Shown here piece by piece: positions 24,220 through 48,530 of a DNA stretch of 64,000 nucleotides. Each line of letters begins with the position of its first letter. Position 1 is the stretch's first letter. The DNA is from Candidatus Heimdallarchaeota archaeon (GTDB lineage: Archaea > Asgardarchaeota > Heimdallarchaeia > Heimdallarchaeales > Heimdallarchaeaceae): assembly GCA_030603365.1 (NCBI GenBank), contig JAUVXV010000001.1, forward strand, positions 128,001 through 192,000. Reading direction: 5' to 3'. The notes below the pieces were generated by a model, which was given only the letters and a program-made list of their open reading frames with translations, ran no database searches and was not told the DNA's origin. The translations under genes were made by a program, and so were the position numbers.

Positions 24220-27003
24220 CTACTTAAACCAATTATCAAGTGATTTCTGACCCTCAATTGATTCATCCCATGAGATACCAATTGTGTCCAGTAATTGTAT
24301 CAAAGTAGATTTTAGTAGTTCTTTAACTTTCGGTATATCTACGTCAGTTTTCTTAGCTAATTGAAGTGGTTTGACAGAACACTCACTACTACCAGTAATT
24401 TTGTCAGATAGTTTAATTGAATGTGATATTCTAAACGGTTTGGTTTTGATAAAACTAATAAAACTTCCAATGGTGGGTTTTTCGCCATCAGGAGAATTGA
24501 TTATTAGTTGAATTGCTGCCTGAAGTGGTTGAGTCCAACTCTCGTATTGATCTATTTTCTTAGATAATGTAACAGTAATAGCTAGGTCCTCTAATTCAAA
24601 CTCTTTCTTTGAAATCTTCTGAACAACTCTCTGAATTGTTTTGATAATACCAGATTTTGCGTTTTCAAGTTCTTTTGGAGTTTGAACGTCTGTTAAAATC
24701 TCCAGAGCTTTCTCAAAAGGTTTTTTAGCTAATTCAGGCGTATTCTTCTTTTTACCCATCAACCCTTTAACTATAGGAATACCCTTTGTTGTTATTCCAA
24801 AATAGTTTTTCTTTCTGTCTGAAAGGCAACAATATCTGAAAATATAGTCAGTACCAAGTTCAATTTGAAAGGTGTCCATGCTCCATTGCTCTAGTTCTTT
24901 AATGTTCTCGGGTGTTGGTTTATGAACAAATATACTGTCAGTATCACCATAAAGAACATTTAAACCTAATTTCTCTTCAGTATATTGCTTGGTTTTTGAT
25001 ATTGCTTCTCGTGCAAAAGCTGCAGTTGATTCTGCTACAGGAGGACAATACAACGCAAAATTATCTGAACCAAATACACCATAGGAAGCGTTTAGTAAAA
25101 CTTTTAGTGAGGATTGGATTACATCACTCAAATTTCTCTCTTCTTTACTTAAAGTTGAATCTTTCACTCTATCTTTGAACCAATAGACCCTAATATCTCG
25201 AATAAATCCAACAAGCATAGAACTTATTCCAACCTGTTTTTCACAAATCCAATGGTTTGTCTCTGGGATTTTGTTTTTCTTACACTCAGGGTGTTTACAA
25301 TTAATAGTTTCATAAGATAGATTTCTTGTTTTTATAATTGACGGATAAAGACTTGCAAAATCGAGAGTATAAACATTCCACCATATTCCTGCTTTAGGTT
25401 CTATAACTATTGCACCTTGATACTTCTTCCCTTTTATAATCGCTTCTGTAGAAGTATCTCCTTTAAGTAGCAAAATATCTTCTCTTCTAGGGATTAAATT
25501 ATTTCTGATTCTGTGCTCATAATACATCCAATTCTGAATCCATATACTAATGCTTGCTCTGGTAAAGTCATCAATTGGCATTTTTGTGATTCTTGAAAGC
25601 ATAATGATGAGTTCTATTACTTGATTGTTGTTGAAACTTGTTAATTCAAATGTTATTTCAGCATCACGGGCATTATATTCTATAAGTTCTTCAAGTTCTA
25701 AATCCCAAATTTCCTTTTCATGTTTTAGCTTTTCTTTTCCTAGCAATGTTCTTCCTAGCTCATCGAGAGTGTTGCGGTCATATGCACCTCCAAACGCGTA
25801 AATGCGAATTGCTGGTTGTCTGAAGAATCTATACAAATCAAGATGGATTCCATTTACTAGATAAACATCTTGTGTTCTTGTTCTAATAAATGGAATTAAG
25901 CTTTCTTTTATTTCCAATCTTTTTGCACGGCTGTCTAAATATAGAAAATCAAAGCTATCTCCATTAAATGTAGCAACAATCGGATATTTGCTTATTTCTT
26001 TGAAAACCGCAATTAACAAATCCGCTTCATTATCGAATTCCTTTATCTTCTTAGTTATTAAATTTCTATCAATCTGCTTCTTTTTCTCATTTAAAACATA
26101 TACACAAGTTTCTCCTTTCTCCTTAGTTATACCGATAGAAATGACTTTTTGCTTTGCTACATGAGGATCAGGTATTTTGTTCTTTTCACTTTCCACTTCT
26201 ATGTCTACAGAACATCGTTTTAATGAAGGAATAGGTGCAAAAAATATTGGTAGGTATTGTTCTACAAGTTCTAAAATTTCTGAAGATTGTCCCTTGAAAA
26301 TCTCAAGTATGTTATTCTTAACAGTGTCTTCTATTTTGGGTTCTTTTCTAACAAGTTTATTGTCTTTAATTTCATAGAAAAGTCCAGGAACTAGAGCATT
26401 GTCATAAATATAATTCAAATGATATCTTATATTTGCTTCAAAAGCGGGAGTTATTTTTTCTCTAAAACTGTTATCTCTTCCTCCAACTGCTAGAGGATTT
26501 GTTGCTAAGACTTTTGTTAATGACAACTCTTTTTCATTCAACCGACTATATTTCTTTACAACTTCACATCCAACAAATTCCTTTTGATTCTTTAGTGTAT
26601 TTTCTACATCTGTTTTTTTCATAGTTGTTAATAAATAAGGAAGATGATTTGTTGAATCATACCATCTATAGACTTTTTCATCATCAGGATTATACAATTT
26701 AACATAAGCCTTCTCGCTTTTTCCATGATATTTAACATCAATTAAGTAAGAAGCAGAAAGATTTTCAGGAGCCAGAATAACAAAATCACTACCTTTCTCT
26801 TCTAAAATCTGTTCAGTTTTATCAAAAACCTCCTCCTTCTCAAACCCATTACTTTCATTATTCTGCTGATTTTTACTTTCTACTTTTTTGTTTAAATCCG
26901 TATTTTCAGATTTGCTAGACTGTGAATTTTTGTTTTGAGGATTTTTAATAAAACTCATTAAATCTCTATCATTTTGATTGTCTTTTTTGTTATTTTGGCT
27001 CAA
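24220..27003 (-). CDS. polB: Family B DNA polymerase, PolB1-like
   Basis: Exo DIE and FNGDSFD; DFASLYPS, K...NASYG, YGDTDS, KKNYFG; C-terminal PIP box QKSLDNWF. Confidence 0.95.
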   Translation of the reverse strand: MSQNNKKDNQNDRDLMSFIKNPQNKNSQSSKSENTDLNKKVESKNQQNNESNGFEKEEVFDKTEQILEEKGSDFVILAPENLSASYLIDVKYHGKSEKAYVKLYNPDDEKVYRWYDSTNHLPYLLTTMKKTDVENTLKNQKEFVGCEVVKKYSRLNEKELSLTKVLATNPLAVGGRDNSFREKITPAFEANIRYHLNYIYDNALVPGLFYEIKDNKLVRKEPKIEDTVKNNILEIFKGQSSEILELVEQYLPIFFAPIPSLKRCSVDIEVESEKNKIPDPHVAKQKVISIGITKEKGETCVYVLNEKKKQIDRNLITKKIKEFDNEADLLIAVFKEISKYPIVATFNGDSFDFLYLDSRAKRLEIKESLIPFIRTRTQDVYLVNGIHLDLYRFFRQPAIRIYAFGGAYDRNTLDELGRTLLGKEKLKHEKEIWDLELEELIEYNARDAEITFELTSFNNNQVIELIIMLSRITKMPIDDFTRASISIWIQNWMYYEHRIRNNLIPRREDILLLKGDTSTEAIIKGKKYQGAIVIEPKAGIWWNVYTLDFASLYPSIIKTRNLSYETINCKHPECKKNKIPETNHWICEKQVGISSMLVGFIRDIRVYWFKDRVKDSTLSKEERNLSDVIQSSLKVLLNASYGVFGSDNFALYCPPVAESTAAFAREAISKTKQYTEEKLGLNVLYGDTDSIFVHKPTPENIKELEQWSMDTFQIELGTDYIFRYCCLSDRKKNYFGITTKGIPIVKGLMGKKKNTPELAKKPFEKALEILTDVQTPKELENAKSGIIKTIQRVVQKISKKEFELEDLAITVTLSKKIDQYESWTQPLQAAIQLIINSPDGEKPTIGSFISFIKTKPFRISHSIKLSDKITGSSECSVKPLQLAKKTDVDIPKVKELLKSTLIQLLDTIGISWDESIEGQKSLDNWFK

Positions 27004-30209: not shown

Positions 30210-30647
30210 ATGATCATGAAAGAAGTCTTCCTTACTCATTACTACTACGGTGATAGATTAACAACTTTCAAGACTGGTTTAGGTACTGTAATTCGAACTA
30301 AAGGTCATTCAATGAATGTCAAAACAGTCATAGTGAATGACTCATTTCACTGGTTAGAAAATCAAAATCAATTTGAAGCTTTTAATCCCATTTTACTAGA
30401 TGTTAACAAAAATAAAGAGATATTAGTTGTTCTTCGAGAGTTAGTTGGTTCTCTAGAAGAAACTGTTTTTCTAATTGCTAATTTTGATTTAATAATCGAG
30501 AAAGGAATTATTAGTTTGGAAAATTTTATTGATCTTCTAAAAGAAAAAAATGAATCTACTGAAATTCTCTTGACTGGCGAAATTGATTACCCTGAATTAA
30601 GAACAATAGCAGATTATGTAAGTTGTATTCAATCAGTTGAAAACTAA
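30210..30647 (+). CDS. Degenerate CobA/CobO-like protein with broken P-loop
   Basis: HYYYGDRLTTFKTGLG..IR.KGHSM.V and EILLTG...PEL..IADYVS.I match CobO except at GKGKT. Confidence 0.6.
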   Translation: MIMKEVFLTHYYYGDRLTTFKTGLGTVIRTKGHSMNVKTVIVNDSFHWLENQNQFEAFNPILLDVNKNKEILVVLRELVGSLEETVFLIANFDLIIEKGIISLENFIDLLKEKNESTEILLTGEIDYPELRTIADYVSCIQSVEN

Positions 30648-31427
30648 ATCAATTGCTCTATGTGCTACTCTTGGTGCTAGCCATCTAATTAATCTTGATG
30701 ATTCTATCTGAAAGTTGGATGAAATTTGACTTCTATTCAGAATCTCGTCAACTCTATTTTCAAATGTTTGATTATTTATTTCCTTATTTGATGTTTTTTC
30801 AGTTATTTGCCAGTGGATATTACCCTTACCATTTTTCAATGCTTTGTATGCAATCGGAAGTGATTTTTCTGCTTCAAGCGGTAAGGGAAGTAAGATTCTG
30901 TCCATCTTGTTGTTGAATAATTTAGGAACAACATTGAACGCGTCCCCTAGATAAGCTTCTACTCTACCAACGCACTTGTTTAACTCAATATTTCTTACAA
31001 GATACTGATATGCGTTTGTATTTAATTCAATACTGTACACAATACAATCATTACAGTTCGTAGCAATTGCTATACTAAAGGGACCTACACCAGAAAAGAA
31101 ATTTAATATTTTTTCTCCTTTTGTCACCAATTTTGCGATTCTTTGTCTTTCAAAACTTAACCTTGGAGAGAAGAATGAAGTTGAAATATCAACTAGGTAA
31201 CTATTTCCATATTCCTTGTAAACTGTTTCGAATGTCTTATTTCCCATGAAATGCTCAAGTTTTCTAGTTCTCTCGAATCCCCCAACTTTAGATGTTTGAA
31301 GAGTTACTGTGCTAATACTAGGGTACTTTTGCATCATTCTATTTGAGAATTCTGTTAGTTTTGATTCATCAGTTTGCTCTCTTATGATAAGTATGCTTCC
31401 TATGATTTCATACACTATATCTTTCAT
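30633..31427 (-). CDS. Trm5/Taw2-family SAM-dependent tRNA-modifying transferase (no D1 domain)
   Basis: FFSPRL..ER, FFSGVGPF, ELN, GDA; ATG 31427 with GGAGA RBS avoids overlap. Confidence 0.85.
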   Translation of the reverse strand: MKDIVYEIIGSILIIREQTDESKLTEFSNRMMQKYPSISTVTLQTSKVGGFERTRKLEHFMGNKTFETVYKEYGNSYLVDISTSFFSPRLSFERQRIAKLVTKGEKILNFFSGVGPFSIAIATNCNDCIVYSIELNTNAYQYLVRNIELNKCVGRVEAYLGDAFNVVPKLFNNKMDRILLPLPLEAEKSLPIAYKALKNGKGNIHWQITEKTSNKEINNQTFENRVDEILNRSQISSNFQIESSRLIRWLAPRVAHRAIDLVFN

Positions 31428-31452
31428 ACTTATCTCCAAAGGAAATTTTAGC

Positions 31453-33606
31453 TTATTCTGTAATTTCTCGGATTGCTGGCCCCTTATATATTGCTTTGTC
31501 AAAAGCGATTCTTCTCATCTGAGGTTGAGTACTAATCTCTTCATAATAGTGAGCAGTTAATCCTGCAGTTCTTCCGAAGACAAAAACAGCTTTAGCCAAC
31601 TTGGGATCTATTTCCATGTCTGCAATAATAGCTCCAATTACACCATCTACATTGATTGGAAGATTCATCCCTCTAACTCTATAGAAAGAATCGCTTATAA
31701 TTCTTGAAACTTCTACACATTCTTTTGCGTATCCTGCTTTTTTCGCAAAATCCCAAAGGACATCTCTTCTAGGATCTTGTGTATGGATTCTATGACCTAA
31801 TCCTTCAATACGTTTCCCAGCTTTAATAGTTTCTTTGATTAATTCGAACGTTGTTTCTTGAAGATCTGTTGCTGTTTCTTTTGATTTCTTCACTACCGAG
31901 AGCATGAATTCTGCAGCTTTTTGACCTGCTCCTCCATGTACGTCCGTTATAGCTTGGATACCAGCTGAAATTGCTACTTCATAGTTAGCTCGGGTCGATG
32001 CTAAAATAAGTGTAGCTTGTGTTGATGGTGGTGTAACACCGTGGTCAACACAGGCAGTTATAATTGCTTCTAGTAGTTTTATTTTCATTTTATCTTCTGG
32101 TAATTCACCTACCAGACATAAGTAAATTAAATCTGAAAAAGAAAGCTGGTCTTGATTATGATTATCAAGTTTTTGCGAGTTTCCAAAATAAATAGAAAGG
32201 TATCTTAGAACTCTTCCCAAAGAATATGCTGCAACTCTAGACGGATCTTTCTCTGAGTTAGCGAAATTTGATAATTTTTTATCAAGCAAAAGGAACGTTC
32301 CTATGATTTTCGAAACATCAGATTCTTCAGGATTTTTATCGAGATGAAGAAATTCTTCCTTAGCTGCATTAATAGCAATTTTCTCGAGCCCTAACAGTTC
32401 ATTCTTGGGAAACTCACCTTTTGTAAGTAGGTATGTTGTTTCTAATAACCCCTTTTTTGCAATGATATCCTGTAGGCTGTATCCTTTGATTACAAGATTA
32501 TTAGGTAAAACTTTAGTTATGAGTGTACCCCAAGTGGGTTCCGGAGATTTAGCATCCCATTTCTTCTTCATCCTTTCATAATAATCTTCCACTCTGAAGT
32601 ATGTTTGATTAAGTTTAGATTTTACAGCTTTAATCAGATCATGTTGGTGGTTTACAACAATAGCTCCTGCTTTTTCTAGAAGTTCTTTCTTAGAATTAAA
32701 GGTACCGTATTTCTGGCCTGGAGTTATTACTGCTCCTGCATGTCCCATAGTTTTTCCTTCAGGTGCATTAGCTCCTGAAATAAGTGCAACTAAAGGTTTG
32801 GAATATTTTTTGGGGTGTTCAATCATATCTTGAGCCAATAATTCTTCTTGCATTCCTCCTATTTCTCCGGCAACAACCACCAAGTCAGTATTTTCGTAAT
32901 TCATTACTAAGGAGACAAGGTCAACAAATCTTGAACCTATGGCACCATCTCCTCCAACTCCTAATACACCATTTTGAGCTATCCCTGCACTAGCTAGAGC
33001 ATCGGACATATGATATAGAATTGCACCGCTTCTTGATAGAATAGTGACTCCTTTTGGTCCAATTCCTCCTTCGTCAGTAATCTGTGCTTGGAAAATATCT
33101 GGGAGCATTCCAATTTTTATTCCTTCGGGCGGAAAGATTATTCCTGGTGTATTTCCTCCAAATAAGATGGTTTTATGTTTTCGTGCTTCCACCAAAATAT
33201 CTCTGACATCTTTTAATGGAATGAACTCAGAGATTAGGACGATTATAGGAACTCCTGATCTTATTACTTCAATTGTTGCATCCTTAGCTGTTGAATAATG
33301 TCTCCAGATACTAGCAACTGCAATATTAGGGTGGTTCATGACAGCTTCTTCTGCTGAGGCATATACTGGAATTGTTTCATGTACCTTTGTTCCACTTCTA
33401 CCTGGTGCAACTCCGCAAGTTACATTTGTACCATATTCCATCATCAGCTGAGCGTGTCTTGTACCTTGTCTTCCTAGTCCTACAATCATCGTTTCTATTG
33501 ATTTTGACTGATCTATTTTTTCTGCTAGTTCTGGTCTTACATGTTTTATAAGATAATCGAGCAATCCTTGATTTGCTTCTAGCTTCTCCTTCTTCATTTC
33601 ACTCAT
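31453..33606 (-). CDS. ATP-citrate-lyase alpha-like: SucD-like CoA ligase fused to citryl-CoA lyase domain
   Basis: GGNTPG, SRSG, MGHAGA phospho-His; DHGVTPPST, HGGAG, GLGHRIH..DPR, NVDG. Confidence 0.85.
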   Translation of the reverse strand: MSEMKKEKLEANQGLLDYLIKHVRPELAEKIDQSKSIETMIVGLGRQGTRHAQLMMEYGTNVTCGVAPGRSGTKVHETIPVYASAEEAVMNHPNIAVASIWRHYSTAKDATIEVIRSGVPIIVLISEFIPLKDVRDILVEARKHKTILFGGNTPGIIFPPEGIKIGMLPDIFQAQITDEGGIGPKGVTILSRSGAILYHMSDALASAGIAQNGVLGVGGDGAIGSRFVDLVSLVMNYENTDLVVVAGEIGGMQEELLAQDMIEHPKKYSKPLVALISGANAPEGKTMGHAGAVITPGQKYGTFNSKKELLEKAGAIVVNHQHDLIKAVKSKLNQTYFRVEDYYERMKKKWDAKSPEPTWGTLITKVLPNNLVIKGYSLQDIIAKKGLLETTYLLTKGEFPKNELLGLEKIAINAAKEEFLHLDKNPEESDVSKIIGTFLLLDKKLSNFANSEKDPSRVAAYSLGRVLRYLSIYFGNSQKLDNHNQDQLSFSDLIYLCLVGELPEDKMKIKLLEAIITACVDHGVTPPSTQATLILASTRANYEVAISAGIQAITDVHGGAGQKAAEFMLSVVKKSKETATDLQETTFELIKETIKAGKRIEGLGHRIHTQDPRRDVLWDFAKKAGYAKECVEVSRIISDSFYRVRGMNLPINVDGVIGAIIADMEIDPKLAKAVFVFGRTAGLTAHYYEEISTQPQMRRIAFDKAIYKGPAIREITE

Positions 33607-34910
33607 CCCCGTATCTCCTGTTGTTTCTTAATTTTGAAGCCGTATTCAATTCCATCTCTAATTACATCAGCCATTATTTTTTGATTTCCTACAACTATAT
33701 GCAAGTCTTCTAATGGGTCTGGAGTTTCCTTTTTTGCCTTTTCAAGATACTCTCTTGCAGCTGCTAAATCAGTTCCAACCATCCTACCAAACACAGGAAT
33801 CATTCTTCTTTTTTGCAAATGCCTATCTCTCAGAGCCATAATTAGACCACGGATGAAAATATCACAACTTGAAATTCCACCAAATCTACTAGTTATGATT
33901 AGACCAGTTGTTGGATGATCCATGAGCAGATGAAACATATCAGCTACTTTGCTTAGAGAAGGGCCTCCTCCACTATCCATGAAGTTTATGGGTACTACTT
34001 TTCCTTCGAAATATCTATCACCGACATTCACAACCTCATCAATTGAAAAGATCCCATACCCCGCTCCTCCTGGTACTAAAGCAACATATAGCTTATCCTT
34101 TTCTTTAACAAAATTCTCTGGGTTTTCTAATAAGTCAAGATATGGGAATCCAATTTTATATGCTTTCGCTTCAAAAATCGTTTGTTCTGATACATCGTGT
34201 CTTTTGCTTTGGGGATCAATACCTATAGATTTCAACAAAGGTTCTTGTCTGTATAAACTATTATCATCCAGTACTATTTTAGCATCGGCAGCAATTATTT
34301 GATTATTAGAAGTAAGAATTAATGGATTTATTTCACATATTTTAGCTTCTATATTTTGAAACGCGGAATAAAGTGATTTTATTGCGTTTTTCAACTGATT
34401 TTTAATTTCTGGTTTATCTGAAAAATTCTTTGATAAGAAATCAACAGCTTCTTCTGCAACAGTATCTTCTAACTCTTTTGCATTATCAAAAATTGTTTTT
34501 TTCCAGATTAATTCAGGATTAGTTTTAGCCACTTCTTCTATATCTATACCACCACTAGCAGAGGCTACTACAACTATATCAAATGTAGCAGGATCTGTTG
34601 TTACTGCTAGGTATATCTCATTGGAAATATCTACAGCTTCTTCTAGCAAAATTTTCTCAATCGGATATCCACGGATTGAGGATTGAAGCATCTTTCTAAT
34701 AATCTCTTTTGCTTCATCTATGCTATTTGGTTTTTTGATGCCTCCGGCCTTTCCTCTTCCTCCAATTAGAACCATTGCTTTAACCATTAGAGGAAACGAT
34801 AATGACATCTTTTCAATTTCCTCTAGTTTTTCAATTACTCCTAATTGCTTGGGAATTTTCAATCCAAATTTGTCAAAAATTTGTTTAGCTTCATACTCAT
34901 ATAATTTCAT
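33603..34910 (-). CDS. ATP-citrate-lyase beta / SucC-like ATP-grasp subunit
   Basis: MKLYEYEAK, GGRGKAGG, GGIDIEE, EINPL, DAK, GGAG, NFMDSGGG. Confidence 0.87.
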   Translation of the reverse strand: MKLYEYEAKQIFDKFGLKIPKQLGVIEKLEEIEKMSLSFPLMVKAMVLIGGRGKAGGIKKPNSIDEAKEIIRKMLQSSIRGYPIEKILLEEAVDISNEIYLAVTTDPATFDIVVVASASGGIDIEEVAKTNPELIWKKTIFDNAKELEDTVAEEAVDFLSKNFSDKPEIKNQLKNAIKSLYSAFQNIEAKICEINPLILTSNNQIIAADAKIVLDDNSLYRQEPLLKSIGIDPQSKRHDVSEQTIFEAKAYKIGFPYLDLLENPENFVKEKDKLYVALVPGGAGYGIFSIDEVVNVGDRYFEGKVVPINFMDSGGGPSLSKVADMFHLLMDHPTTGLIITSRFGGISSCDIFIRGLIMALRDRHLQKRRMIPVFGRMVGTDLAAAREYLEKAKKETPDPLEDLHIVVGNQKIMADVIRDGIEYGFKIKKQQEIRG

Positions 34911-34921
34911 TCTTTCACGCT

Positions 34922-36775
34922 CTAAGATGAATACAGTTGTTGATAATAGTTGATTAATCCCCCGGCATTAAAGATTTTTAATAATTCTTCTGGTAGCTTG
35001 GGAAATGTGTAATCTTGATCTCCATTCGAAATTGTACCAGTTTCTAGATTAATATCGACAGGATTTTCTGAATTGAAGTTATTGACAAACTCAGAATGAA
35101 CAATGATTGGTAATCCTTGATTAATCGCTGATCTGTAAAATATTCTAGCTACAGATTTTACAATGACAGCTTTTACACCTGCAGAAGCAAGCCCTACTGC
35201 AGGATGTTCTCTAGATGATCCACATCCAAAGTTCTCTCCACCTACGATTACATCCCCTTCTTTAACTCTAGCTGCAAAAGATTCATCTAAGCCTTTGAAT
35301 AAATGTGGTACAATCTTCTCTCCCTCTGATGACTTGATATCATAAGTTAATCCACCTGCAAACATTTGATCTGTATTAAAATCATTGACATCTTTATAGT
35401 CCCATACATTATGTTTGCGTCTATTATCATCTGGTGTAATTGTAAGAATTTTTGTTTCAATATCTCTTTTTCTTAACTCTATAGGGTTTTTCCCTTCTAT
35501 AACTTCAAGTGACAGGTACTTTCTTGGATCTACTATTCTTCCTTCTATTACAGAAGCAGCAACAGTAGCTGGAGATGATAAATAAACTGAGGATTTCTTA
35601 TTTCCCATTCTTCCTAAGAAATTTCTATTTGCAGTGGATATGACATTCCACCCGTCAGCAGGAATGCCTTGACCTTTGCCCAAACATGGACCACAACTAC
35701 ACGAAAGAATTGTTGCTCCTGCACTAACAAGAGTTTCAATTATACCTTTTTCTAGTGCTTTTTGATATATTTCTGTGGAAGCTGGAGCAACTAGAAATAC
35801 TACTCCTTGTTTAATTTTTTTACCTTTCAAGATTGAAGCGGCTATTTCTAAATCGTCCAATCGTGCATTTGTACATGTTCCAAGAAATGCCTGATGTATT
35901 TCAATTTCATCAAGATTTTTAGCATATTCTTCATTATCCACTTGGTGAGGTACTGCAACTAAAGGTTCCAAATCATTCAGTTGTAGCGTTACTTCAGAAC
36001 TAAAACTTGCATCCTTATCTGACCAGAACATTTCTTCTTTGTTCAAGAGTTTTTTATTGCCATGTTTTTCTTTCAACCACTCTATAAGAATCTCGTCTGG
36101 AGGGAAAATAGCTGTTTTTGCCCCCATTTCAGAAGCTAGATTGGCAAGTGTCATTCTTTCTGAGACAGAAAGTGTCTTAACTCCATTTCCATGGAATTCA
36201 ATCGCTTGGTATGTTGCACCTGATGCTCCAACTCTGTTCATTAACCATAGAGCTATATCTTTAGCATAGATTCCTGGAGATAATTTTCCATGCAAAATTA
36301 CCTTAATTGTTTCCGGAATTCTGAACCAGGTTTTACCTGTTAACCATAAACCAGCTGTTTCTGTTCTATCAATACCTGCTGCAAATGTAGCAAACGCACC
36401 ACTTGTACAAGTGTGGGAATCAGAACCGACGACCAACATATTTGGAAGTGCATGATTTGACATTAACTGATGGCATATTCCTCTTCCTTCGTCATAGAAA
36501 TTTGTAACATTATGCCGTATCACTAATTCTCTAATGCTCTTGTGATCATTGGCAATCTGTACACTTGTGGGGGGTGAATCATGATCAAGAACAATAACTA
36601 AACGATTAGGATATTTAATTTCTGTTCCACCCATTTTTTGGAATGTTTTTACAATAGATGCTGAATTATCGTGTGAAAGGATCAAATCAGGTTCTGCATA
36701 AACAATCGTTCCTGCTTTGACATCCATTCCTGATTTAAATGAAAAGAGTTTTTCTGAAAATGTTTTTCCTCCCAT
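34922..36775 (-). CDS. Fused large+small aconitase-family hydro-lyase (homoaconitase-like)
   Basis: SHDN, LDH, GICHQ, DSHT, GTCTN, CGPCLG, NRNF; C-terminal swivel domain with NTDQ and FGCGSSRE. Confidence 0.9.
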   Translation of the reverse strand: MGGKTFSEKLFSFKSGMDVKAGTIVYAEPDLILSHDNSASIVKTFQKMGGTEIKYPNRLVIVLDHDSPPTSVQIANDHKSIRELVIRHNVTNFYDEGRGICHQLMSNHALPNMLVVGSDSHTCTSGAFATFAAGIDRTETAGLWLTGKTWFRIPETIKVILHGKLSPGIYAKDIALWLMNRVGASGATYQAIEFHGNGVKTLSVSERMTLANLASEMGAKTAIFPPDEILIEWLKEKHGNKKLLNKEEMFWSDKDASFSSEVTLQLNDLEPLVAVPHQVDNEEYAKNLDEIEIHQAFLGTCTNARLDDLEIAASILKGKKIKQGVVFLVAPASTEIYQKALEKGIIETLVSAGATILSCSCGPCLGKGQGIPADGWNVISTANRNFLGRMGNKKSSVYLSSPATVAASVIEGRIVDPRKYLSLEVIEGKNPIELRKRDIETKILTITPDDNRRKHNVWDYKDVNDFNTDQMFAGGLTYDIKSSEGEKIVPHLFKGLDESFAARVKEGDVIVGGENFGCGSSREHPAVGLASAGVKAVIVKSVARIFYRSAINQGLPIIVHSEFVNNFNSENPVDINLETGTISNGDQDYTFPKLPEELLKIFNAGGLINYYQQLYSS

Positions 36776-36787
36776 AGTTTAACCTCC

Positions 36788-37294
36788 TTAAAATCTTCCA
36801 CCCAATTTTAATAATCCCCCAGCATTCATTATATCTAATACTGGCTGAGGAATCTTCTTGCATTTCATTTGTGCATTTTTAGTTTTGTTTAACAATACAG
36901 ATTGAGAGATATCTATTTCTAACTCGTCATCTACATCTATCACAAAATCTGCAATATCAGGAACCTCAACAAGAAGTAATCCTGCATTTACGGCATTACT
37001 ATAATATATGGGACCAAATGATTCACCAATTATAGCTTTAATTTTATGCGCTAGAAATCCTGTTACTGCCTGCTGTCGAGTAGAACCTTTGCCGAAATTC
37101 TTACCTACCACTAGAATTTTATTTGAATTGTCCTCTTTACCAAAATTCTCAAACCCTTCTAGATTGCCAAAAATATGCGGTTTGATTTCTTCTGGATTGT
37201 GGATTGTTAACAATGATTGATGGAAGATTTGATCTGTATCGATATCATCAACTCGAACTAATGTCACGTCTCCACTAATGTTTTCTTTGCTCAT
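36788..37294 (-). CDS. LeuD/HacB-like small subunit, divergent
   Basis: DDIDTDQI, NFGKGSTRQQA, NAVNAG. Confidence 0.85.
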   Translation of the reverse strand: MSKENISGDVTLVRVDDIDTDQIFHQSLLTIHNPEEIKPHIFGNLEGFENFGKEDNSNKILVVGKNFGKGSTRQQAVTGFLAHKIKAIIGESFGPIYYSNAVNAGLLLVEVPDIADFVIDVDDELEIDISQSVLLNKTKNAQMKCKKIPQPVLDIMNAGGLLKLGGRF

Positions 37295-38559
37295 TTTTCT
37301 TCACTAACCTTGGGGATTGCTATTTTACCTTCTATTGCCGTCGCAGCAGCTATCGCAGGACTTGCTAAATAAACGTCTGCTGGTCCAATTTTACCTTGAG
37401 TATTACGATTGCCTGTAGTCAATGTAACAGCTGTTTTTCCACCAGTTAAACCATATTGTCCCTTTGCACAAGTGGAACAACCAGTACCAAAGAAATTACC
37501 TCCTGCCTCTAAGATTACAGACATATCCCCCTCAGAATTTATTGTGACAAAATCTTCTCTAGTTGCAGGAACGATACCAAAACGGACATTTGGGTCAACC
37601 TTTCTACCTTTTAGAACTCTTGCTACTTCATGAATGTCTGTATAACTTCCGTTTGTACATGAACCCACAACAATTGAACTTATTGGAGTGTCCACGACTT
37701 CTTCAATGGGTTTAACATTGTGCGGATGAGGAGGACATGCTATATACATTCCTAGATCTTCAATATCTATTGTTAATTCTGATGAATAATTTGCATTATC
37801 ATCTGCAGTAATAGTTTCAATCTCTATTCCGAGTTTCTTATAATAATCAGCTGTAATTGAATCTTGAGGAACAAAGCCTATCATACCTGAAGCTTCTGTT
37901 ATGAGAGAGCAAAGAGTTACTCTGTCTTCTATTGATAACTTAGAAATGATGTTACCATAAAACTCAACTGACTTTCCTGTTATCCCATATTCATGTAGTT
38001 GTTTGAGAACATAAAGAGCTAAATCTTTAGATGATGTTGGCCAACTATAATCTCCTTCCAAGTAAATTTTAACTGTTTCTGGAATTTTGATCCATGCTTT
38101 CCCAGTCTTCATTGCAAAAGCAAGCATAACATCACCTGCCCCCAGACCTAAAATGCCTAAAGCTCCAAGTATATTATAATGGCTATCTGCACCAAAAGCA
38201 ATATCTCCTGGTTTCGAAAATCCTCTTCGGAATAATAGATGAGAACCTATCCCAGAACCTAAATCAGTAACCTTAATATTATGTTCTTTTGCAAAAACCC
38301 TTATTTTTTCTTGATCTACGGCGTGTTTTGGGTCATTGCCATAGGGATAACAATCGGGTGTGAAAATTATTTTATTACTGTTAAAAACCTTGGAATCAGG
38401 ATAATTTTTTTGAAATAAATCAACAACTTGAGGACCTGCATAATCTCTTGCGGTAACTAAATCTAGATTTATCCATACAATATTTCCAGGAAAGATTTCC
38501 TCTTCTGATGCTGTAGTATGTGATTTGATGATTTTTTCTACAAGCGTAAACCCTTTCAT
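37291..38559 (-). CDS. LeuC/HacA-like large subunit, divergent
   Basis: DSH, KDLAL, GSCTNG, CSTC, GNRN, YLASP. Confidence 0.88.
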   Translation of the reverse strand: MKGFTLVEKIIKSHTTASEEEIFPGNIVWINLDLVTARDYAGPQVVDLFQKNYPDSKVFNSNKIIFTPDCYPYGNDPKHAVDQEKIRVFAKEHNIKVTDLGSGIGSHLLFRRGFSKPGDIAFGADSHYNILGALGILGLGAGDVMLAFAMKTGKAWIKIPETVKIYLEGDYSWPTSSKDLALYVLKQLHEYGITGKSVEFYGNIISKLSIEDRVTLCSLITEASGMIGFVPQDSITADYYKKLGIEIETITADDNANYSSELTIDIEDLGMYIACPPHPHNVKPIEEVVDTPISSIVVGSCTNGSYTDIHEVARVLKGRKVDPNVRFGIVPATREDFVTINSEGDMSVILEAGGNFFGTGCSTCAKGQYGLTGGKTAVTLTTGNRNTQGKIGPADVYLASPAIAAATAIEGKIAIPKVSEEK

Positions 38560-38633
38560 TTATGTCAATTTCATCGATTAAAAGGGAAGTAATAAGGATA
38601 TCTCTATGTATTGTTAAATAGAGACTCACTTCA

Positions 38634-39767
38634 TTACAACATCTTTATTTTATCACAAATACCTCTTGCCATTTCAGAAGTAGTAGTGCTTCCACCCATG
38701 TCATATGTGCGATATTTTCCTTCTGCAATTACAGCAGCTACAGCTTCCTCTATTTTTTGTGCCATTTCTTTTTCTCCCAACCAATCTAACATCATTTTAG
38801 CTGCTAATATTTGTGCTATAGGATTGACTTTATTCATGCCTACATACTTTGGTGCAGATCCATGAGTAGGTTCGAAAACAGCAAATTTCTCCCCAATATT
38901 ACCTGAACATGCGAATCCTAATCCACCAATTAACTGAGCAGCTAAATCAGAAACAATGTCACCAAACATGTTGGAAGAGACTAAAATACCATAATTCTGA
39001 GGGTTCTTAACAAGCCACATAGCCATCGCATCTATGTTTGCTTCCCATAATTCTATTCCTTCATATTCCTGTATTAGTTTGCGAGCTTCTCTCACCATCA
39101 AACCACTTGTTTCTCTGATAACATTTGGTTTTTCAACAACTGTAACTGTAGGATAATCAAATTCTTTGGCGTAATTCATGCTTGCTTTAAGAATGCGTCG
39201 TACCCCTTTTCTAGTAAATATTCGAGTGGATATAGCAATGTCTTCAAGGTTGGTATCAGCAAACTTTTTCGCTTTAGGATGATGTTTAATAAAAGTTTCC
39301 ATTACCTCATCTGGAACGGGATGCCATTCAATTCCTACATAAAGCCCCTCAGTATTTTCTCTAAATACTACTAAATCAATATCATCTCTGTAGTTAAGAG
39401 AATTGCCTGGATAAGCTTTACAAGGGCGTAAGTTAACATATAAATCAAATAATTGTCTTAATCTAACAATTGGACTGAAGTAAATCAGTCCCTTTCCTTG
39501 TAATTCAGGTACAAGTTCTTTCTCAGCTTCTTCTTTAGGTTTAGATGTAATTGCTGAAAATAAACAACAATCTGAATTCTTCAATAATTCTATCGTTCTG
39601 TCTGGAAGGGGATTTCCTTCTTTGCACCAGAATTCCCAACCTATATCTCCGTGTGTGTATTCTGCTATTTCACTGAATCCAACAGCATCTAAAACATTCA
39701 TTGCTGCTTCAGTGACATCTATACCCACGCCATCTCCTGGTAAAACTGCTATTTTGTATTTCTTCAT
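38634..39767 (-). CDS. Beta-decarboxylating dehydrogenase (isocitrate/homoisocitrate/IPM family), NADP-type motif
   Basis: PGDGVG, SPIVRLR, RENTEGLY, NMFGDI.SD, EPTHGSAPKY. Confidence 0.92.
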   Translation of the reverse strand: MKKYKIAVLPGDGVGIDVTEAAMNVLDAVGFSEIAEYTHGDIGWEFWCKEGNPLPDRTIELLKNSDCCLFSAITSKPKEEAEKELVPELQGKGLIYFSPIVRLRQLFDLYVNLRPCKAYPGNSLNYRDDIDLVVFRENTEGLYVGIEWHPVPDEVMETFIKHHPKAKKFADTNLEDIAISTRIFTRKGVRRILKASMNYAKEFDYPTVTVVEKPNVIRETSGLMVREARKLIQEYEGIELWEANIDAMAMWLVKNPQNYGILVSSNMFGDIVSDLAAQLIGGLGFACSGNIGEKFAVFEPTHGSAPKYVGMNKVNPIAQILAAKMMLDWLGEKEMAQKIEEAVAAVIAEGKYRTYDMGGSTTTSEMARGICDKIKML

Positions 39768-39794
39768 TGTTTTATGCCTCTTGTATATTTTTTG

Positions 39795-40358
39795 TCAGTT
39801 TTTTTCGAATATTTTCTTTATTGGGGAGAAACAGAGGAAATCAACACGGTGAATTATATCAACTTCAGGTAAACGGTTAATTTTATCTCCTTCTTTGCTG
39901 TGAAAAACTATGGCCTGTCTTACAACGATTGGAAGGTTAAATTCACTTACTATTTCTAAACCCATTGCTGGATGACGAATACGATTGCCTTCCTCAGTCT
40001 GTATTATTTTTCCCGATGAATCTCTTTCATATTCTGTGAATTTTCCAACATCGTGAAGTAAGGCCCCCGCTATTAATTCATCTCTGTTTAATTTGTCCCC
40101 TAAACCTAATTTAACATATGTATCGTAAGTAGAAATGCACATCTGTGTGACAGCTCTTATATGATCTACTAGACTTATCTGTGCGACTTGGTCATCCGAA
40201 ATCAGCTCAGGAATTAACAATGTAGCTGGAATGTACTTAAAATCATCTTCAGTCCATTCACCAAGAGTAATCGCTTTCTCAAGCGATTTTTCCACTTTAT
40301 TACGTAGATCTTCACTATTAATTTCATCAAGTTCTGGAAATAGGTTCCTAATCTCCAT
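39795..40358 (-). CDS. HD-domain protein
   Basis: DH...V, LLHDVGK, RH...G, HS. Confidence 0.85.
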   Translation of the reverse strand: MEIRNLFPELDEINSEDLRNKVEKSLEKAITLGEWTEDDFKYIPATLLIPELISDDQVAQISLVDHIRAVTQMCISTYDTYVKLGLGDKLNRDELIAGALLHDVGKFTEYERDSSGKIIQTEEGNRIRHPAMGLEIVSEFNLPIVVRQAIVFHSKEGDKINRLPEVDIIHRVDFLCFSPIKKIFEKN

Positions 40359-40870: not shown

Positions 40871-42142
40871 TTATTCTTTAATAGTACCAACACCAATCAA
40901 ACGAAATCGTCCTGATACTCTTCTTGAGATAGCCACTTTACTACTTGTGCTTGTTGCTACATCTCTACTAAGCTTAATTTTCACATCTTCTCCTTTGATC
41001 TCTATAATTGTTCCAGCTGTTTTAGCGGTTCCAACATTTAACATCAAGGTTTCTCCTTGAGCCAGAGGTTGTACTTTTGTTATTTCTTCAGAACCTACTA
41101 CAAATTCCATGAGATGAACAATAAGTGACAACTCTGCACGAACTGGTGGCGCATTATCAGGTGATGTGACAATATTACCCGCCATTTTATCTGCTTTAAC
41201 AAAAGCGGGGTCTAACTCTGTTCCTAAGGCAACTAATCCTCCAGAATGAGCTTTATCCACGAGACCTTGTTCCCCAATAGAAATACTCACTACTTTTGTT
41301 TTAATTGGGGTATAAACAGTTTTATTTCCCTTTTTGATTGCAATGCCTGGTACAATCTCTATTTCTTCTCCCTTAGTGATTTGTCCTTTAATTATCGTTC
41401 CCCCCAGTGTTCCTCCTTTGAGTTTTTCAGGAACAGTTCCTGGTCGATTAATATCAAATGAACGAGCTACATGCATCTCTAAAGGACTTTCTACATCTAA
41501 ATCAGGAGTTGGAATGTTTTTTTCAATTTCACAAATTAAAATGTCTAGATTTGCTTTATGCATAGCACTAATTGGAATAATAGGTGCATTTTCTGCTATT
41601 GTTCCTTTAACAAAATCCTGTATCTCTTTGTAGTTTCTCTTAGCCTCTTCCTCAGAAACTAATTCAATCTTATTTTGGGCAATAACAATGTTTGGAATTT
41701 GAAGAATTTCCATTGCTGCAAGATGTTCTCGAGTTTGTGGTTGAGGGCACTTAGAATTTGCTGCAACCAATAATATTGCACCATTCATAAGTGTAGCACC
41801 AGAGAGTAATGTTGCCATAAGTACTTCATGCCCTGGACAGTCTACAAAAGAAACTCTTCGAAGTAATTCAGAAGGTGATCCACATTTTGGACATGTTTTT
41901 TCTATAGTATACGCCTCAGGTTCTGGACATTTTGGACATTTGCGGAACTCTGTGTCTGCATAACCCAATCTTATAGAAATCCCTCTTTTTAATTCCTCAG
42001 AATGATCATCTGGGAATTTACCAGTAAGAGCTTGCACAAGTGTAGATTTACCATTATCTACATGACCTATTGTACCTATATTGACAACTGGTTGTATGAT
42101 TTCTTTTTTTTCCTTTTTTTCGGGAGAATCTGTTTGACTCAT
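40871..42142 (-). CDS. eif2g: Translation initiation factor aIF2 gamma
   Basis: GHVDNGKS, RGISIRLGYA, DCPGHE, PQPQT.EH, RSFDIN.PG. Confidence 0.96.
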   Translation of the reverse strand: MSQTDSPEKKEKKEIIQPVVNIGTIGHVDNGKSTLVQALTGKFPDDHSEELKRGISIRLGYADTEFRKCPKCPEPEAYTIEKTCPKCGSPSELLRRVSFVDCPGHEVLMATLLSGATLMNGAILLVAANSKCPQPQTREHLAAMEILQIPNIVIAQNKIELVSEEEAKRNYKEIQDFVKGTIAENAPIIPISAMHKANLDILICEIEKNIPTPDLDVESPLEMHVARSFDINRPGTVPEKLKGGTLGGTIIKGQITKGEEIEIVPGIAIKKGNKTVYTPIKTKVVSISIGEQGLVDKAHSGGLVALGTELDPAFVKADKMAGNIVTSPDNAPPVRAELSLIVHLMEFVVGSEEITKVQPLAQGETLMLNVGTAKTAGTIIEIKGEDVKIKLSRDVATSTSSKVAISRRVSGRFRLIGVGTIKE

Positions 42143-45606: not shown

Positions 45607-45738
45607 AAAGAAGAATTTTCACGACCTGTTTAAAAACGTTGCTCAATAATAACTAGTACGACTACAGCTGTTGAAATCTTTAAATACATTAAACAATAAA
45701 TAATCAATAAGAGATGTCTAAAACACTTGGTGATTTGC

Positions 45739-46248
45739 TTGTATGGTGCTGATCAAATAAATACAATTCTTCATGAGATTATAACAAGTGATGCTAATAT
45801 TAATCATGTAATATTAGCTGATAAAACAGGTTTAACACTAGCTTATTCCTCACGATTTGCCTTTGATGAGTTTGAAACAGAGGCGTTAGGTGCTATTGCT
45901 AGTGCAGTCTATTTAGCTAGTGAACAACAAGGAACAAATGTAGGTCTAGCGGAACTAGACATTATCATATCAGAATTTTCTGATGGTCTAATTTTAGTAG
46001 CGAGTTGTGGAAGTACTGTTTTGTGTCTGATTACAGACACTGGAGTAGCTTTAGGTATGGTTAGAAGAACCATGAAAATAGCAGCCGAGAAAATTAGAAA
46101 TATATTGGATGTTGAAGCTAAGCCAGTTACTACACCTGAAGCTCAACCTGTTGTAACACCGCAACCAGTTGTTGCAGAGGAAAAGAAAGTTCAAGATGAG
46201 TTCATCTCCGATTTAGAATTAGCTTTAAGGGAATTAGAACAATTTTAA
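45739..46248 (+). CDS. Roadblock/LC7 (MglB-like) domain protein with Pro-rich linker and helical tail
   Basis: VILAD..GL, ALGAIASA, E...G, LG.V; TTG 45739 after GGTGA RBS. Confidence 0.85.
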   Translation: MYGADQINTILHEIITSDANINHVILADKTGLTLAYSSRFAFDEFETEALGAIASAVYLASEQQGTNVGLAELDIIISEFSDGLILVASCGSTVLCLITDTGVALGMVRRTMKIAAEKIRNILDVEAKPVTTPEAQPVVTPQPVVAEEKKVQDEFISDLELALRELEQF

Positions 46249-47939: not shown

Positions 47940-48530
47940 TTATTGTTGAGCATAGAGTTTCTCATAGAAGAGAACGATATTTTTCAGTAAGGTTTTGAAA
48001 GCTTCATCAACATTCTCACCAGTCTTAGCAGAAGTTTCTATGTAAGGTACAGTAAATCCTGACCAGGCAGAAAGAGATCTAGCATATTCTTCTGATTGTT
48101 CTCTCATGATTGGATCTTTCGCAGTTGCTCGCAAATCAGATTTATTTCCAATCAAAACAATTGGAACAACTCTGTTACTATTATTTTTAAGAAGTTCAGC
48201 TATCCACGAAGGAATATTCTCAAAACTTGATCTTCTGGATATGTCAAAAACCAATAAACATCCAGAAGTACCGCGGTAATAAACTTCTCGAACAGCTGAA
48301 AATCTTTGCTGTCCTGCAAGATCCCAGATCTGTGCAACAAAATCTTGATCGTCTATACGTAATCGTTTAACAGCAAAATCTGCCCCTATAGTCATAGAGT
48401 ATCCGTCTTTAAAGCCCTCACCTAAATAGGTTTTACGAAGGCTTGTCTTACCTACGGCACCATCGCCTAGTAGGGTGATTTTGAAGATTTTCCGTTGTCC
48501 GGCGCCCATTTTATGTTCCCCTTTATACAA
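47940..48530 (-). CDS. Rab-like small GTPase
   Basis: GDGAVGKT, TIGADF, WDLAGQQRF, YYRG, NKSD, ETSAK. Confidence 0.95.
   Translation of the reverse strand: MYKGEHKMGAGQRKIFKITLLGDGAVGKTSLRKTYLGEGFKDGYSMTIGADFAVKRLRIDDQDFVAQIWDLAGQQRFSAVREVYYRGTSGCLLVFDISRRSSFENIPSWIAELLKNNSNRVVPIVLIGNKSDLRATAKDPIMREQSEEYARSLSAWSGFTVPYIETSAKTGENVDEAFKTLLKNIVLFYEKLYAQQ

Follow-up and report, generated by a model that had tools for sequence, protein, structure and literature searches.

We analysed a window of 64,000 nucleotides (positions 128,001 to 192,000 of contig JAUVXV010000001.1) from the genome of a Candidatus Heimdallarchaeota archaeon, in which seven open reading frames (ORFs), all on the minus strand between window positions 31453 and 40358, form an operon that may activate and cleave a tricarboxylate. 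The genes follow each other in the order G-F-E-D-C-B-A, with intergenic gaps of 27, 74, -4, 12, 11 and -4 nt (Table 1). A preliminary description of this DNA, made from the sequence alone, had reported seven co-oriented genes of these families in this order, which is borne out by the ORF positions and, for the protein domains, by Pfam and NCBIfam profiles. All enzymes of the module are members of known superfamilies. A, B, D, E and F score below every listed NCBIfam family cut-off, and databases name such genes 'citrate/2-methylcitrate synthase' or '3-isopropylmalate dehydratase'. Among named sequences, the closest homologue of A comes from Candidatus Heimdallarchaeaceae.

Table 1. Genes of the operon, followed by genes of its surroundings (window coordinates).
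Gene	Product	Length	Position	Strand	Basis or remark
G	HD-domain protein	187 aa	39795..40358	-	PF01966; di-metal ligand set intact
F	Beta-decarboxylating dehydrogenase	377 aa	38634..39767	-	Substrate loop of homoisocitrate type; cofactor signature of NADP type
E	Large subunit, distinct hydro-lyase of the aconitase family	422 aa	37291..38559	-	Own clade, rebuilt active site
D	Small subunit of E	168 aa	36788..37294	-	PF00694
C	Hydro-lyase of the LeuCD/homoaconitase family, both subunits fused	617 aa	34922..36775	-	TIGR01343; conventional active site
B	ATP-grasp CoA-ligase beta subunit, own family	435 aa	33603..34910	-	PF08442
A	SucD-like ligase alpha domain plus long citryl-CoA-lyase-like domain	717 aa	31453..33606	-	Conserved residues, Ccl likeness
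	Trm5/TYW2-type methyltransferase		30633-31502	-	50-nt overlap with the end of A
	Family B DNA polymerase		24220-27003		Flank
	aIF2-gamma		40871-42142		Flank
	Roadblock-like protein		45727-46248		Flank
	Small Rab/Ras-like GTPase		47940-48530		Flank

The arrangement of these seven genes is far beyond chance, because linkage of these genes recurs in other Asgard archaea, in Thermoplasmatota-like loci and in anaerobic bacteria, with gene order kept within the source family. First, bacterial loci read F, G, a fused E/D, a split C and then an end step, which consists of B plus A, or of a stand-alone long lyase with a different split ligase, or has no adjoining genes at all. The stand-alone lyase is 48% identical to the end of A, and is paired with the split ligase in two bacteria. 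Second, Thermoplasmatota-like loci have G-B-A, often with a fused E/D next. Third, among 301 Asgard genomes, E and F share the four families in which they chiefly occur (24/28, 16 and 13/21, 10/11 and 2/5), with A present in a subset; neither was found in the three largest other Asgard families, bar four weak matches to E that probably represent other LeuC types. Where A is patchy, a CitF-like gene adjoins A/B or F-G, and CitF homologues exceed the cut-off for citrate lyase alpha. In some loci (L137:11878-14629 and L187:4962-7443) a CitF-like transferase and a further, stand-alone lyase accompany B and A, so that two activation routes lie side by side. Fourth, F was found in 49/61 genomes of the Bipolaricaulales and the E/D type in none of the 61 (best identity <=40%), while a PrpD-family gene lies directly after F in all 30 loci read and an operon CitDE-CitF-HD-C is present. 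In this group the PrpD-family gene appears to replace E/D. Across the loci, either CitDEF or the split ligase plus lyase can replace the SucC/SucD::Ccl pair.

A search of plasmids with A returned no full-length homologue, and a search of named genomes returned mostly SucD matches and only seven members of the family. In Borrarchaeum (L016:5791-7281) the module is broken by a pyridoxal-phosphate-dependent gene of the cysteine-synthase fold on the opposite strand, which has a 70% homologue elsewhere in the source genome (contig C1).

The A/B pair joins an ATP-grasp subunit to a SucD-like domain that is fused with a citrate-synthase-fold lyase. It thereby resembles the ATP-citrate lyase (ACL) AclAB of Chlorobium (6hxj) and Methanothrix (6hxi), which likewise has two subunits, an ATP-grasp beta and a CoA-binding, phospho-histidine alpha fused to the lyase. 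The preliminary description had recognised this architecture, and it stands as far as domain design and catalytic residues go: the phospho-histidine H289 and the lyase residues H522, H557, H605, R614, D654, R679 and R698 of A are conserved in 79-80 of 80 homologues. Descent from ACL does not stand. B forms a clade (support 100/100) apart from both AclB and SucC, on the SucC side of a tree with long branches, and it lacks the ACL citrate loop (GIANFT) in the alignment. PF16114, the citrate-binding domain of ACL, had no match in the source genome or in 28 genomes of its family; identity of A to Asgard AclA is about 25%; and both systems are present side by side in some genomes, including eight of one genus that carry PF16114 as well as the A family.

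Searches of the PDB placed the N-terminal part of A nearest SucD and the whole of B nearest SucC, in line with the tree and with the earlier remark that the beta subunit is more SucC-like than AclB. The C-terminal part of A came nearest to Ccl of Hydrogenobacter (6hxp), at 127 bits against 41-43 for AclA. Ccl is thus the best structural relative of the lyase domain by sequence, but in Hydrogenobacter thermophilus CcsAB and Ccl (6hxq, 6hxp) are separate, whereas here the lyase is fused to the alpha subunit, and SucCD, not CcsAB, gives the higher scores with the ligase halves. Neither profile family claims the pair: the PRK06224 Ccl models gave A 213.5 against a cut-off of 245 and 209.6 against 212 bits, and scores with the succinyl-CoA synthetase equivalog models were 244 against 370 and 209 against 336 bits. 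Since the lyase end of A is nearest Ccl and not AclA, an ACL-like design appears to have been reached independently, and A/B is, by its sequence relationships, not an ACL by descent but a separate SucC-derived ligase together with an independent SucD+Ccl fusion. With regard to substrate, R342 and R376 of B are invariant in 91 homologues, and its substrate loop has Ser-Arg where the NIFGGI-type loop of succinyl-CoA synthetase has Asn-Ile; two invariant arginines at this place would fit a third carboxylate. Papers that mention ACL homologues of Asgard archaea or SucD-CS fusions of Methanosarcinales do not mention the present module, and a literature search, from which subscription journals were mostly outside coverage, returned nothing on it or on a homocitrate-cleaving route.

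The dehydrogenase F has homoisocitrate dehydrogenases as its best matches in the PDB. Its substrate loop lacks the Ser-x-Asn-Val of isocitrate dehydrogenase (ICDH), with Ile100 at the position of the Asn (Ile in 61/61 homologues), and has Val101 at the position of Arg85 of the homoisocitrate dehydrogenase from Thermus, whose Thr-Ser pair is kept. From the Thermus and yeast enzymes, we take Val at the Arg85 position to be a mark of homoisocitrate-specific enzymes; literature searches for data on Arg85 found nothing, and a PDB search with the loop sequence by itself returned no alignment to the yeast enzyme. The SPIVxLR motif pointed out previously is present, and its core SPIV-[LM]RQ is invariant in the 61 homologues, all of which also share the NADP-type signature Lys307-Tyr308 in place of the NAD-type Asp-Ile/Leu. 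One relative, 43% identical and with this loop but the NAD-type Asp, lies between a homoaconitase and a homocitrate synthase, both over cut-off, in a LysW-LysX-LysY-LysZ-LysK operon. It falls with F in one 28-sequence group apart from the ICDH and LeuB sequences (support 94 in the Shimodaira-Hasegawa-like approximate likelihood ratio test) in a quick tree built without characterised enzymes. A bacterial LysW operon (L344:3123-12541) combines an F-like dehydrogenase with a fused homoaconitase of the fungal type, over the TIGR00139 cut-off. The proteins of a sister group of F (P0244, P0249, P0250, P0251, P0254 and P0263), of about 720-760 aa, carry a fused molybdopterin-binding/CinA-like domain, and one relative, P0258, is fused to an RraA-like aldolase domain. 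The module recalls the first half of the alpha-aminoadipate pathway (PMC3556520) in its homoisocitrate-type loop, its two hydro-lyases and the close relative of F in a LysW operon. However, it lacks an HMGL-type synthase and LysX, its C-C step is ATP-linked and of the citrate-synthase fold, its dehydrogenase has the NADP-type signature, and its second hydro-lyase is a new subfamily or PrpD.

The two hydro-lyases differ. C scores 488 bits with TIGR01343 (cut-off 386) and 344 bits with the fungal homoaconitase model TIGR00139 (cut-off 530). Its fused large and small subunits had been read as a feature of fungal homoaconitase, a claim that fails because the fusion is local: homologues of C are split elsewhere, and the bacterial fusion is that of E with D. 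E, in contrast to the conventional C, forms its own clade (100/100) and stays under the cut-off for LeuC, homoaconitase and aconitase (353 against 385 bits). It keeps the three cluster cysteines, and its conserved motifs are altered at three places (His to Arg, His to Cys and a shifted His), with Asp-Cys replacing Asp-His and the His shifted in all E sequences. D keeps the catalytic Ser and has RQQA in place of REH, and is fused to E in bacteria and in Thermoplasmatota-like loci. The predicted structure of a fused E/D homologue shows the aconitase fold, with active-site loops so poorly modelled that it supports the fold alone.

Stereochemistry would explain why a second hydro-lyase is there. 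Enzymes of the citrate-synthase fold handle (3S)-citryl-CoA, and with 2-oxoglutarate replacing oxaloacetate the counterpart is (S)-homocitrate, whereas ordinary aconitases yield (R)-homocitrate; a lyase of this fold should then need the (S) form. Both the rebuilt site of E/D and its interchange with PrpD would fit hydration on the other face of C3, giving (S)-homocitrate. Isomerisation of homocitrate takes two enzymes in fungi and Thermus, whose homoaconitases perform only the half between homoaconitate and homoisocitrate (PMC3556520). Aconitases work on the oxaloacetate-derived arm (PMC5690661), whereas PrpD dehydrates a (3S) tricarboxylate towards its acyl-CoA-derived arm, a reaction that aconitases do not perform (PMC5690661, PMC3556520). 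In the 2-methylcitrate cycle of PrpC, PrpD and AcnB (PMC5690661, PMC3556520) a citrate-synthase-fold enzyme similarly needs an extra dehydratase for that arm, but in the module a dehydrogenase takes the place of PrpB, and the Bipolaricaulales PrpD homologue scores far below the PrpD cut-offs. We rejected 2-methylcitrate itself as the substrate, since 2-methylisocitrate is a tertiary alcohol that cannot be oxidised and the module has no PrpB.

The HD protein G accompanies the module in 58 loci and in every lineage seen, and its residues H66, H102, D103, H129, H153 and D173 are 98-100% conserved in 76 homologues. PDB and Atlas searches with G returned no characterised relative and no function. 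G may be a hydrolase or a repair enzyme; our best guess is a hydrolase that removes a side product such as homocitrate lactone. This constant linkage, the problem of (R)- versus (S)-homocitrate and the rebuilt site of E/D had been missed by the preliminary description.

The source genome comprises 3.65 Mb and is 89% complete, which limits the negative results obtained in it. By BLAST, the operon is its sole source of aconitase-family, ICDH-family and citrate-synthase-fold genes. As for the canonical genes that the preliminary description had asked for elsewhere in the genome, an ordinary SucCD pair does exist on another contig, but acn and icd do not turn up. An HMGL-like synthase was not found in this genome or in G263, which agrees with the earlier statement that a homocitrate or isopropylmalate synthase is missing from the gene set; nor did the source genome yield a monomeric ICDH or PrpD. 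LysX was not found in the module-bearing source genome, G263, G304 and G306. In three other genomes the module stands beside canonical citrate enzymes. First, one cluster of G263, a single-contig genome, comprises AclB, AclA, ICDH, aconitase, fumarase and Sdh/Frd, and the module lies elsewhere. Second, G306 has a cluster of AclAB, ICDH and aconitase that is likewise separate. Third, G079 carries, in addition to the module, AcnA and an ICDH whose loop is the usual one.

Starting from what is observed, namely the gene set, its conservation, its intact catalytic residues, the interchange of its parts and its coexistence with canonical citrate enzymes, we infer substrates, stereochemistry, direction and a link to lysine from sequence. 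The reading that we favour, with a probability of about 0.52, is that the operon runs 2-oxoacid chain elongation backwards on lysine-derived 2-oxoadipate, cleaving homocitrate to acetyl-CoA and 2-oxoglutarate. F would carboxylate 2-oxoadipate reductively with CO2 and NADPH to homoisocitrate, which C would dehydrate to cis-homoaconitate. E/D would then add water to the face of C3 opposite to that used by ordinary aconitases, yielding (S)-homocitrate, which B and the N-terminal part of A would convert with ATP to (S)-homocitryl-CoA. Finally, the C-terminal part of A would split this thioester into acetyl-CoA and 2-oxoglutarate. The end-step designs, A/B, split ligase plus long Ccl and CitDEF, all activate and then cleave, and to our knowledge CitDEF is known only as a cleaving enzyme. 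The preliminary description had called the route CO2-fixing, which would hold only for a single carboxylation within an otherwise catabolic pathway; there is no sign of autotrophy.

In this scheme the route would lie downstream of lysine 6-aminotransferase, and a fermenter could dispose of 2-oxoadipate by it without glutaryl-CoA dehydrogenase. The source genome has a lysine 6-aminotransferase over cut-off, together with two genes of the saccharopine dehydrogenase family, and the aminotransferase is also present in G306 and in 23/28 genomes of the source family. G263 and G304 have a LOR/SDH pair, and saccharopine dehydrogenase homologues are found in 56/61 Bipolaricaulales. In G345 the LOR/SDH pair precedes CitDE-CitF-HD-C by three genes on the same strand. 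In G306, of the Thermoplasmatota, about 1.3 kb separates F from an oppositely oriented gene of the saccharopine dehydrogenase family (L244:8915-12497). On the contig of L159 (L212:18690-21806), benzoyl-CoA-reductase-like genes (HGD-D, BcrAD) are found just downstream of the module and a 2-oxoacid:ferredoxin oxidoreductase upstream; a connection by way of glutaryl-CoA is conceivable.

Several observations weigh against this reading. First, the genomes counted include close kin and are not independent samples. Second, lysine 6-aminotransferase occurs without the module too, in two closed genomes and in 11/11 of a sister family, and was rejected as a specific marker; in G079, moreover, the module coexists with LysX, and neither of the lysine-entry enzymes was found. 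Third, a 2-oxoacid:ferredoxin oxidoreductase gene precedes F in three bacterial loci, and 8/8 Bipolaricaulales loci (L358:4063-6569, L359-L365) have an ornithine-carbamoyltransferase-like gene ahead of CitDE; both arrangements would also fit 2-oxoglutarate. Fourth, C shares the HDN motif with the true homoaconitase of the LysW operon, but the tree gives no firm grouping with the fungal type; free citrate is achiral, and a split aconitase would look similar to E/D. Fifth, the dehydrogenase and the citrate-synthase-fold gene of the module are the only ones found in the source family, and G304, a single contig of 4.1 Mb, has no other ICDH or aconitase. The ornithine-carbamoyltransferase-like enzyme might act on ornithine or on lysine/homocitrulline; an amidohydrolase-like gene accompanies it in three of the eight loci.

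Because the module enzymes are the only ones of their kind in the source family and G304, a citrate or dual role is possible there. The preliminary description had offered two readings, of which homocitrate cleavage is now the better supported, while the other, a citrate branch, is weakened because three genomes hold the module beside canonical citrate enzymes. That branch would lead with a split aconitase from 2-oxoglutarate through isocitrate, cis-aconitate and citrate to acetyl-CoA and oxaloacetate, in either direction, or the module would serve both substrates, citrate being the chief one in the source family. We consider it unlikely, although more probable than the other alternatives. In its favour, besides the lack of other such genes, in the 31 family genomes each module-bearing one has a single dehydrogenase and a single citrate-synthase-fold gene, the cofactor signature of F is that of many ICDHs, the lyase residues of A match Ccl, the CitF homologues pass as citrate lyase alpha, a PrpD-type enzyme could also make achiral citrate, and a phosphoenolpyruvate carboxykinase-like gene is present in the source genome. 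However, such a branch would be redundant with the canonical AclAB, ICDH and aconitase of G263 and G306, F lacks the loop Asn throughout, B lacks the citrate loop, and two closed genomes of the source family live with neither a dehydrogenase nor a citrate-synthase-fold gene of this kind. A reductive tricarboxylic acid (rTCA) cycle would also call for malate dehydrogenase, and PF00056 had no match in the incomplete source genome, G007, G043 or G304, in spite of fumarase-, Sdh/Frd-, SucCD- and Kor-like genes. Thus, the module is probably not a citrate branch.

Homocitrate chemistry might also run forwards, with A/B as an ATP-yielding homocitrate synthase that replaces the HMGL-type enzyme and supplies 2-oxoadipate for lysine synthesis or for oxidation to glutaryl-CoA. 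We regard this as rather improbable. The missing HMGL-like synthase, the LysX of G079 and the 2-oxoacid oxidoreductase beside F speak for it, as does the reversibility of ligase-lyase chemistry, known from the ACL of Desulfobacter postgatei. Yet LysX was not found in the four module-bearing genomes named above (fungal-type aminoadipate reductase was not searched for), the cleaving enzyme CitDEF forms the end step in Bipolaricaulales, and the signature of F is switched from the NAD type of its biosynthetic relative. The module might instead shorten a different 2-oxoacid by way of an (S)-alkylmalate, such as 2-oxobutyrate via (S)-citramalate to pyruvate and acetyl-CoA, which seems still less probable: the same stereochemical logic would apply, (S)-citramalate lyase is a CitDEF-type complex and C scores well with isopropylmalate isomerase models, but F has the Thr-Ser pair of the Thermus enzyme and groups away from LeuB, and the arginines of B would suit a third carboxylate. 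That A/B is a second succinyl-CoA synthetase, clustered without pathway meaning, is very hard to believe, for despite its nearness to SucD and SucC the source genome has a separate SucCD pair, the lyase domain is fused and intact, and the gene set is kept across domains while its order changes.

Around the operon, the Trm5-like gene downstream was rejected as a member of the module, being linked to it in close relatives only. From the translations alone, the content of the flanks (Table 1) looks usual for Asgard archaea.

If homocitrate cleavage is what the module performs, and we see an even chance of it, Heimdallarchaeia and many sediment anaerobes would share a widespread, undescribed anaerobic route from lysine through 2-oxoadipate, with NADPH-dependent carboxylation, a new subfamily of Fe-S hydro-lyases making (S)-homocitrate and the first ATP-homocitrate lyase. 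Lysine breakdown by this route would consume CO2 and reducing power and bypass glutaryl-CoA dehydrogenase. It would add two new enzyme activities, an ATP-homocitrate lyase and a homoaconitate hydratase of (S) specificity, and the ACL design would have arisen a second time, from SucCD and Ccl. Its genes would currently be passing under the names of citrate synthase, of leucine enzymes or of rTCA markers, and in metabolic reconstructions of the Asgard relatives of eukaryotes the module genes should not be counted as markers of the TCA cycle, the rTCA cycle or leucine biosynthesis.

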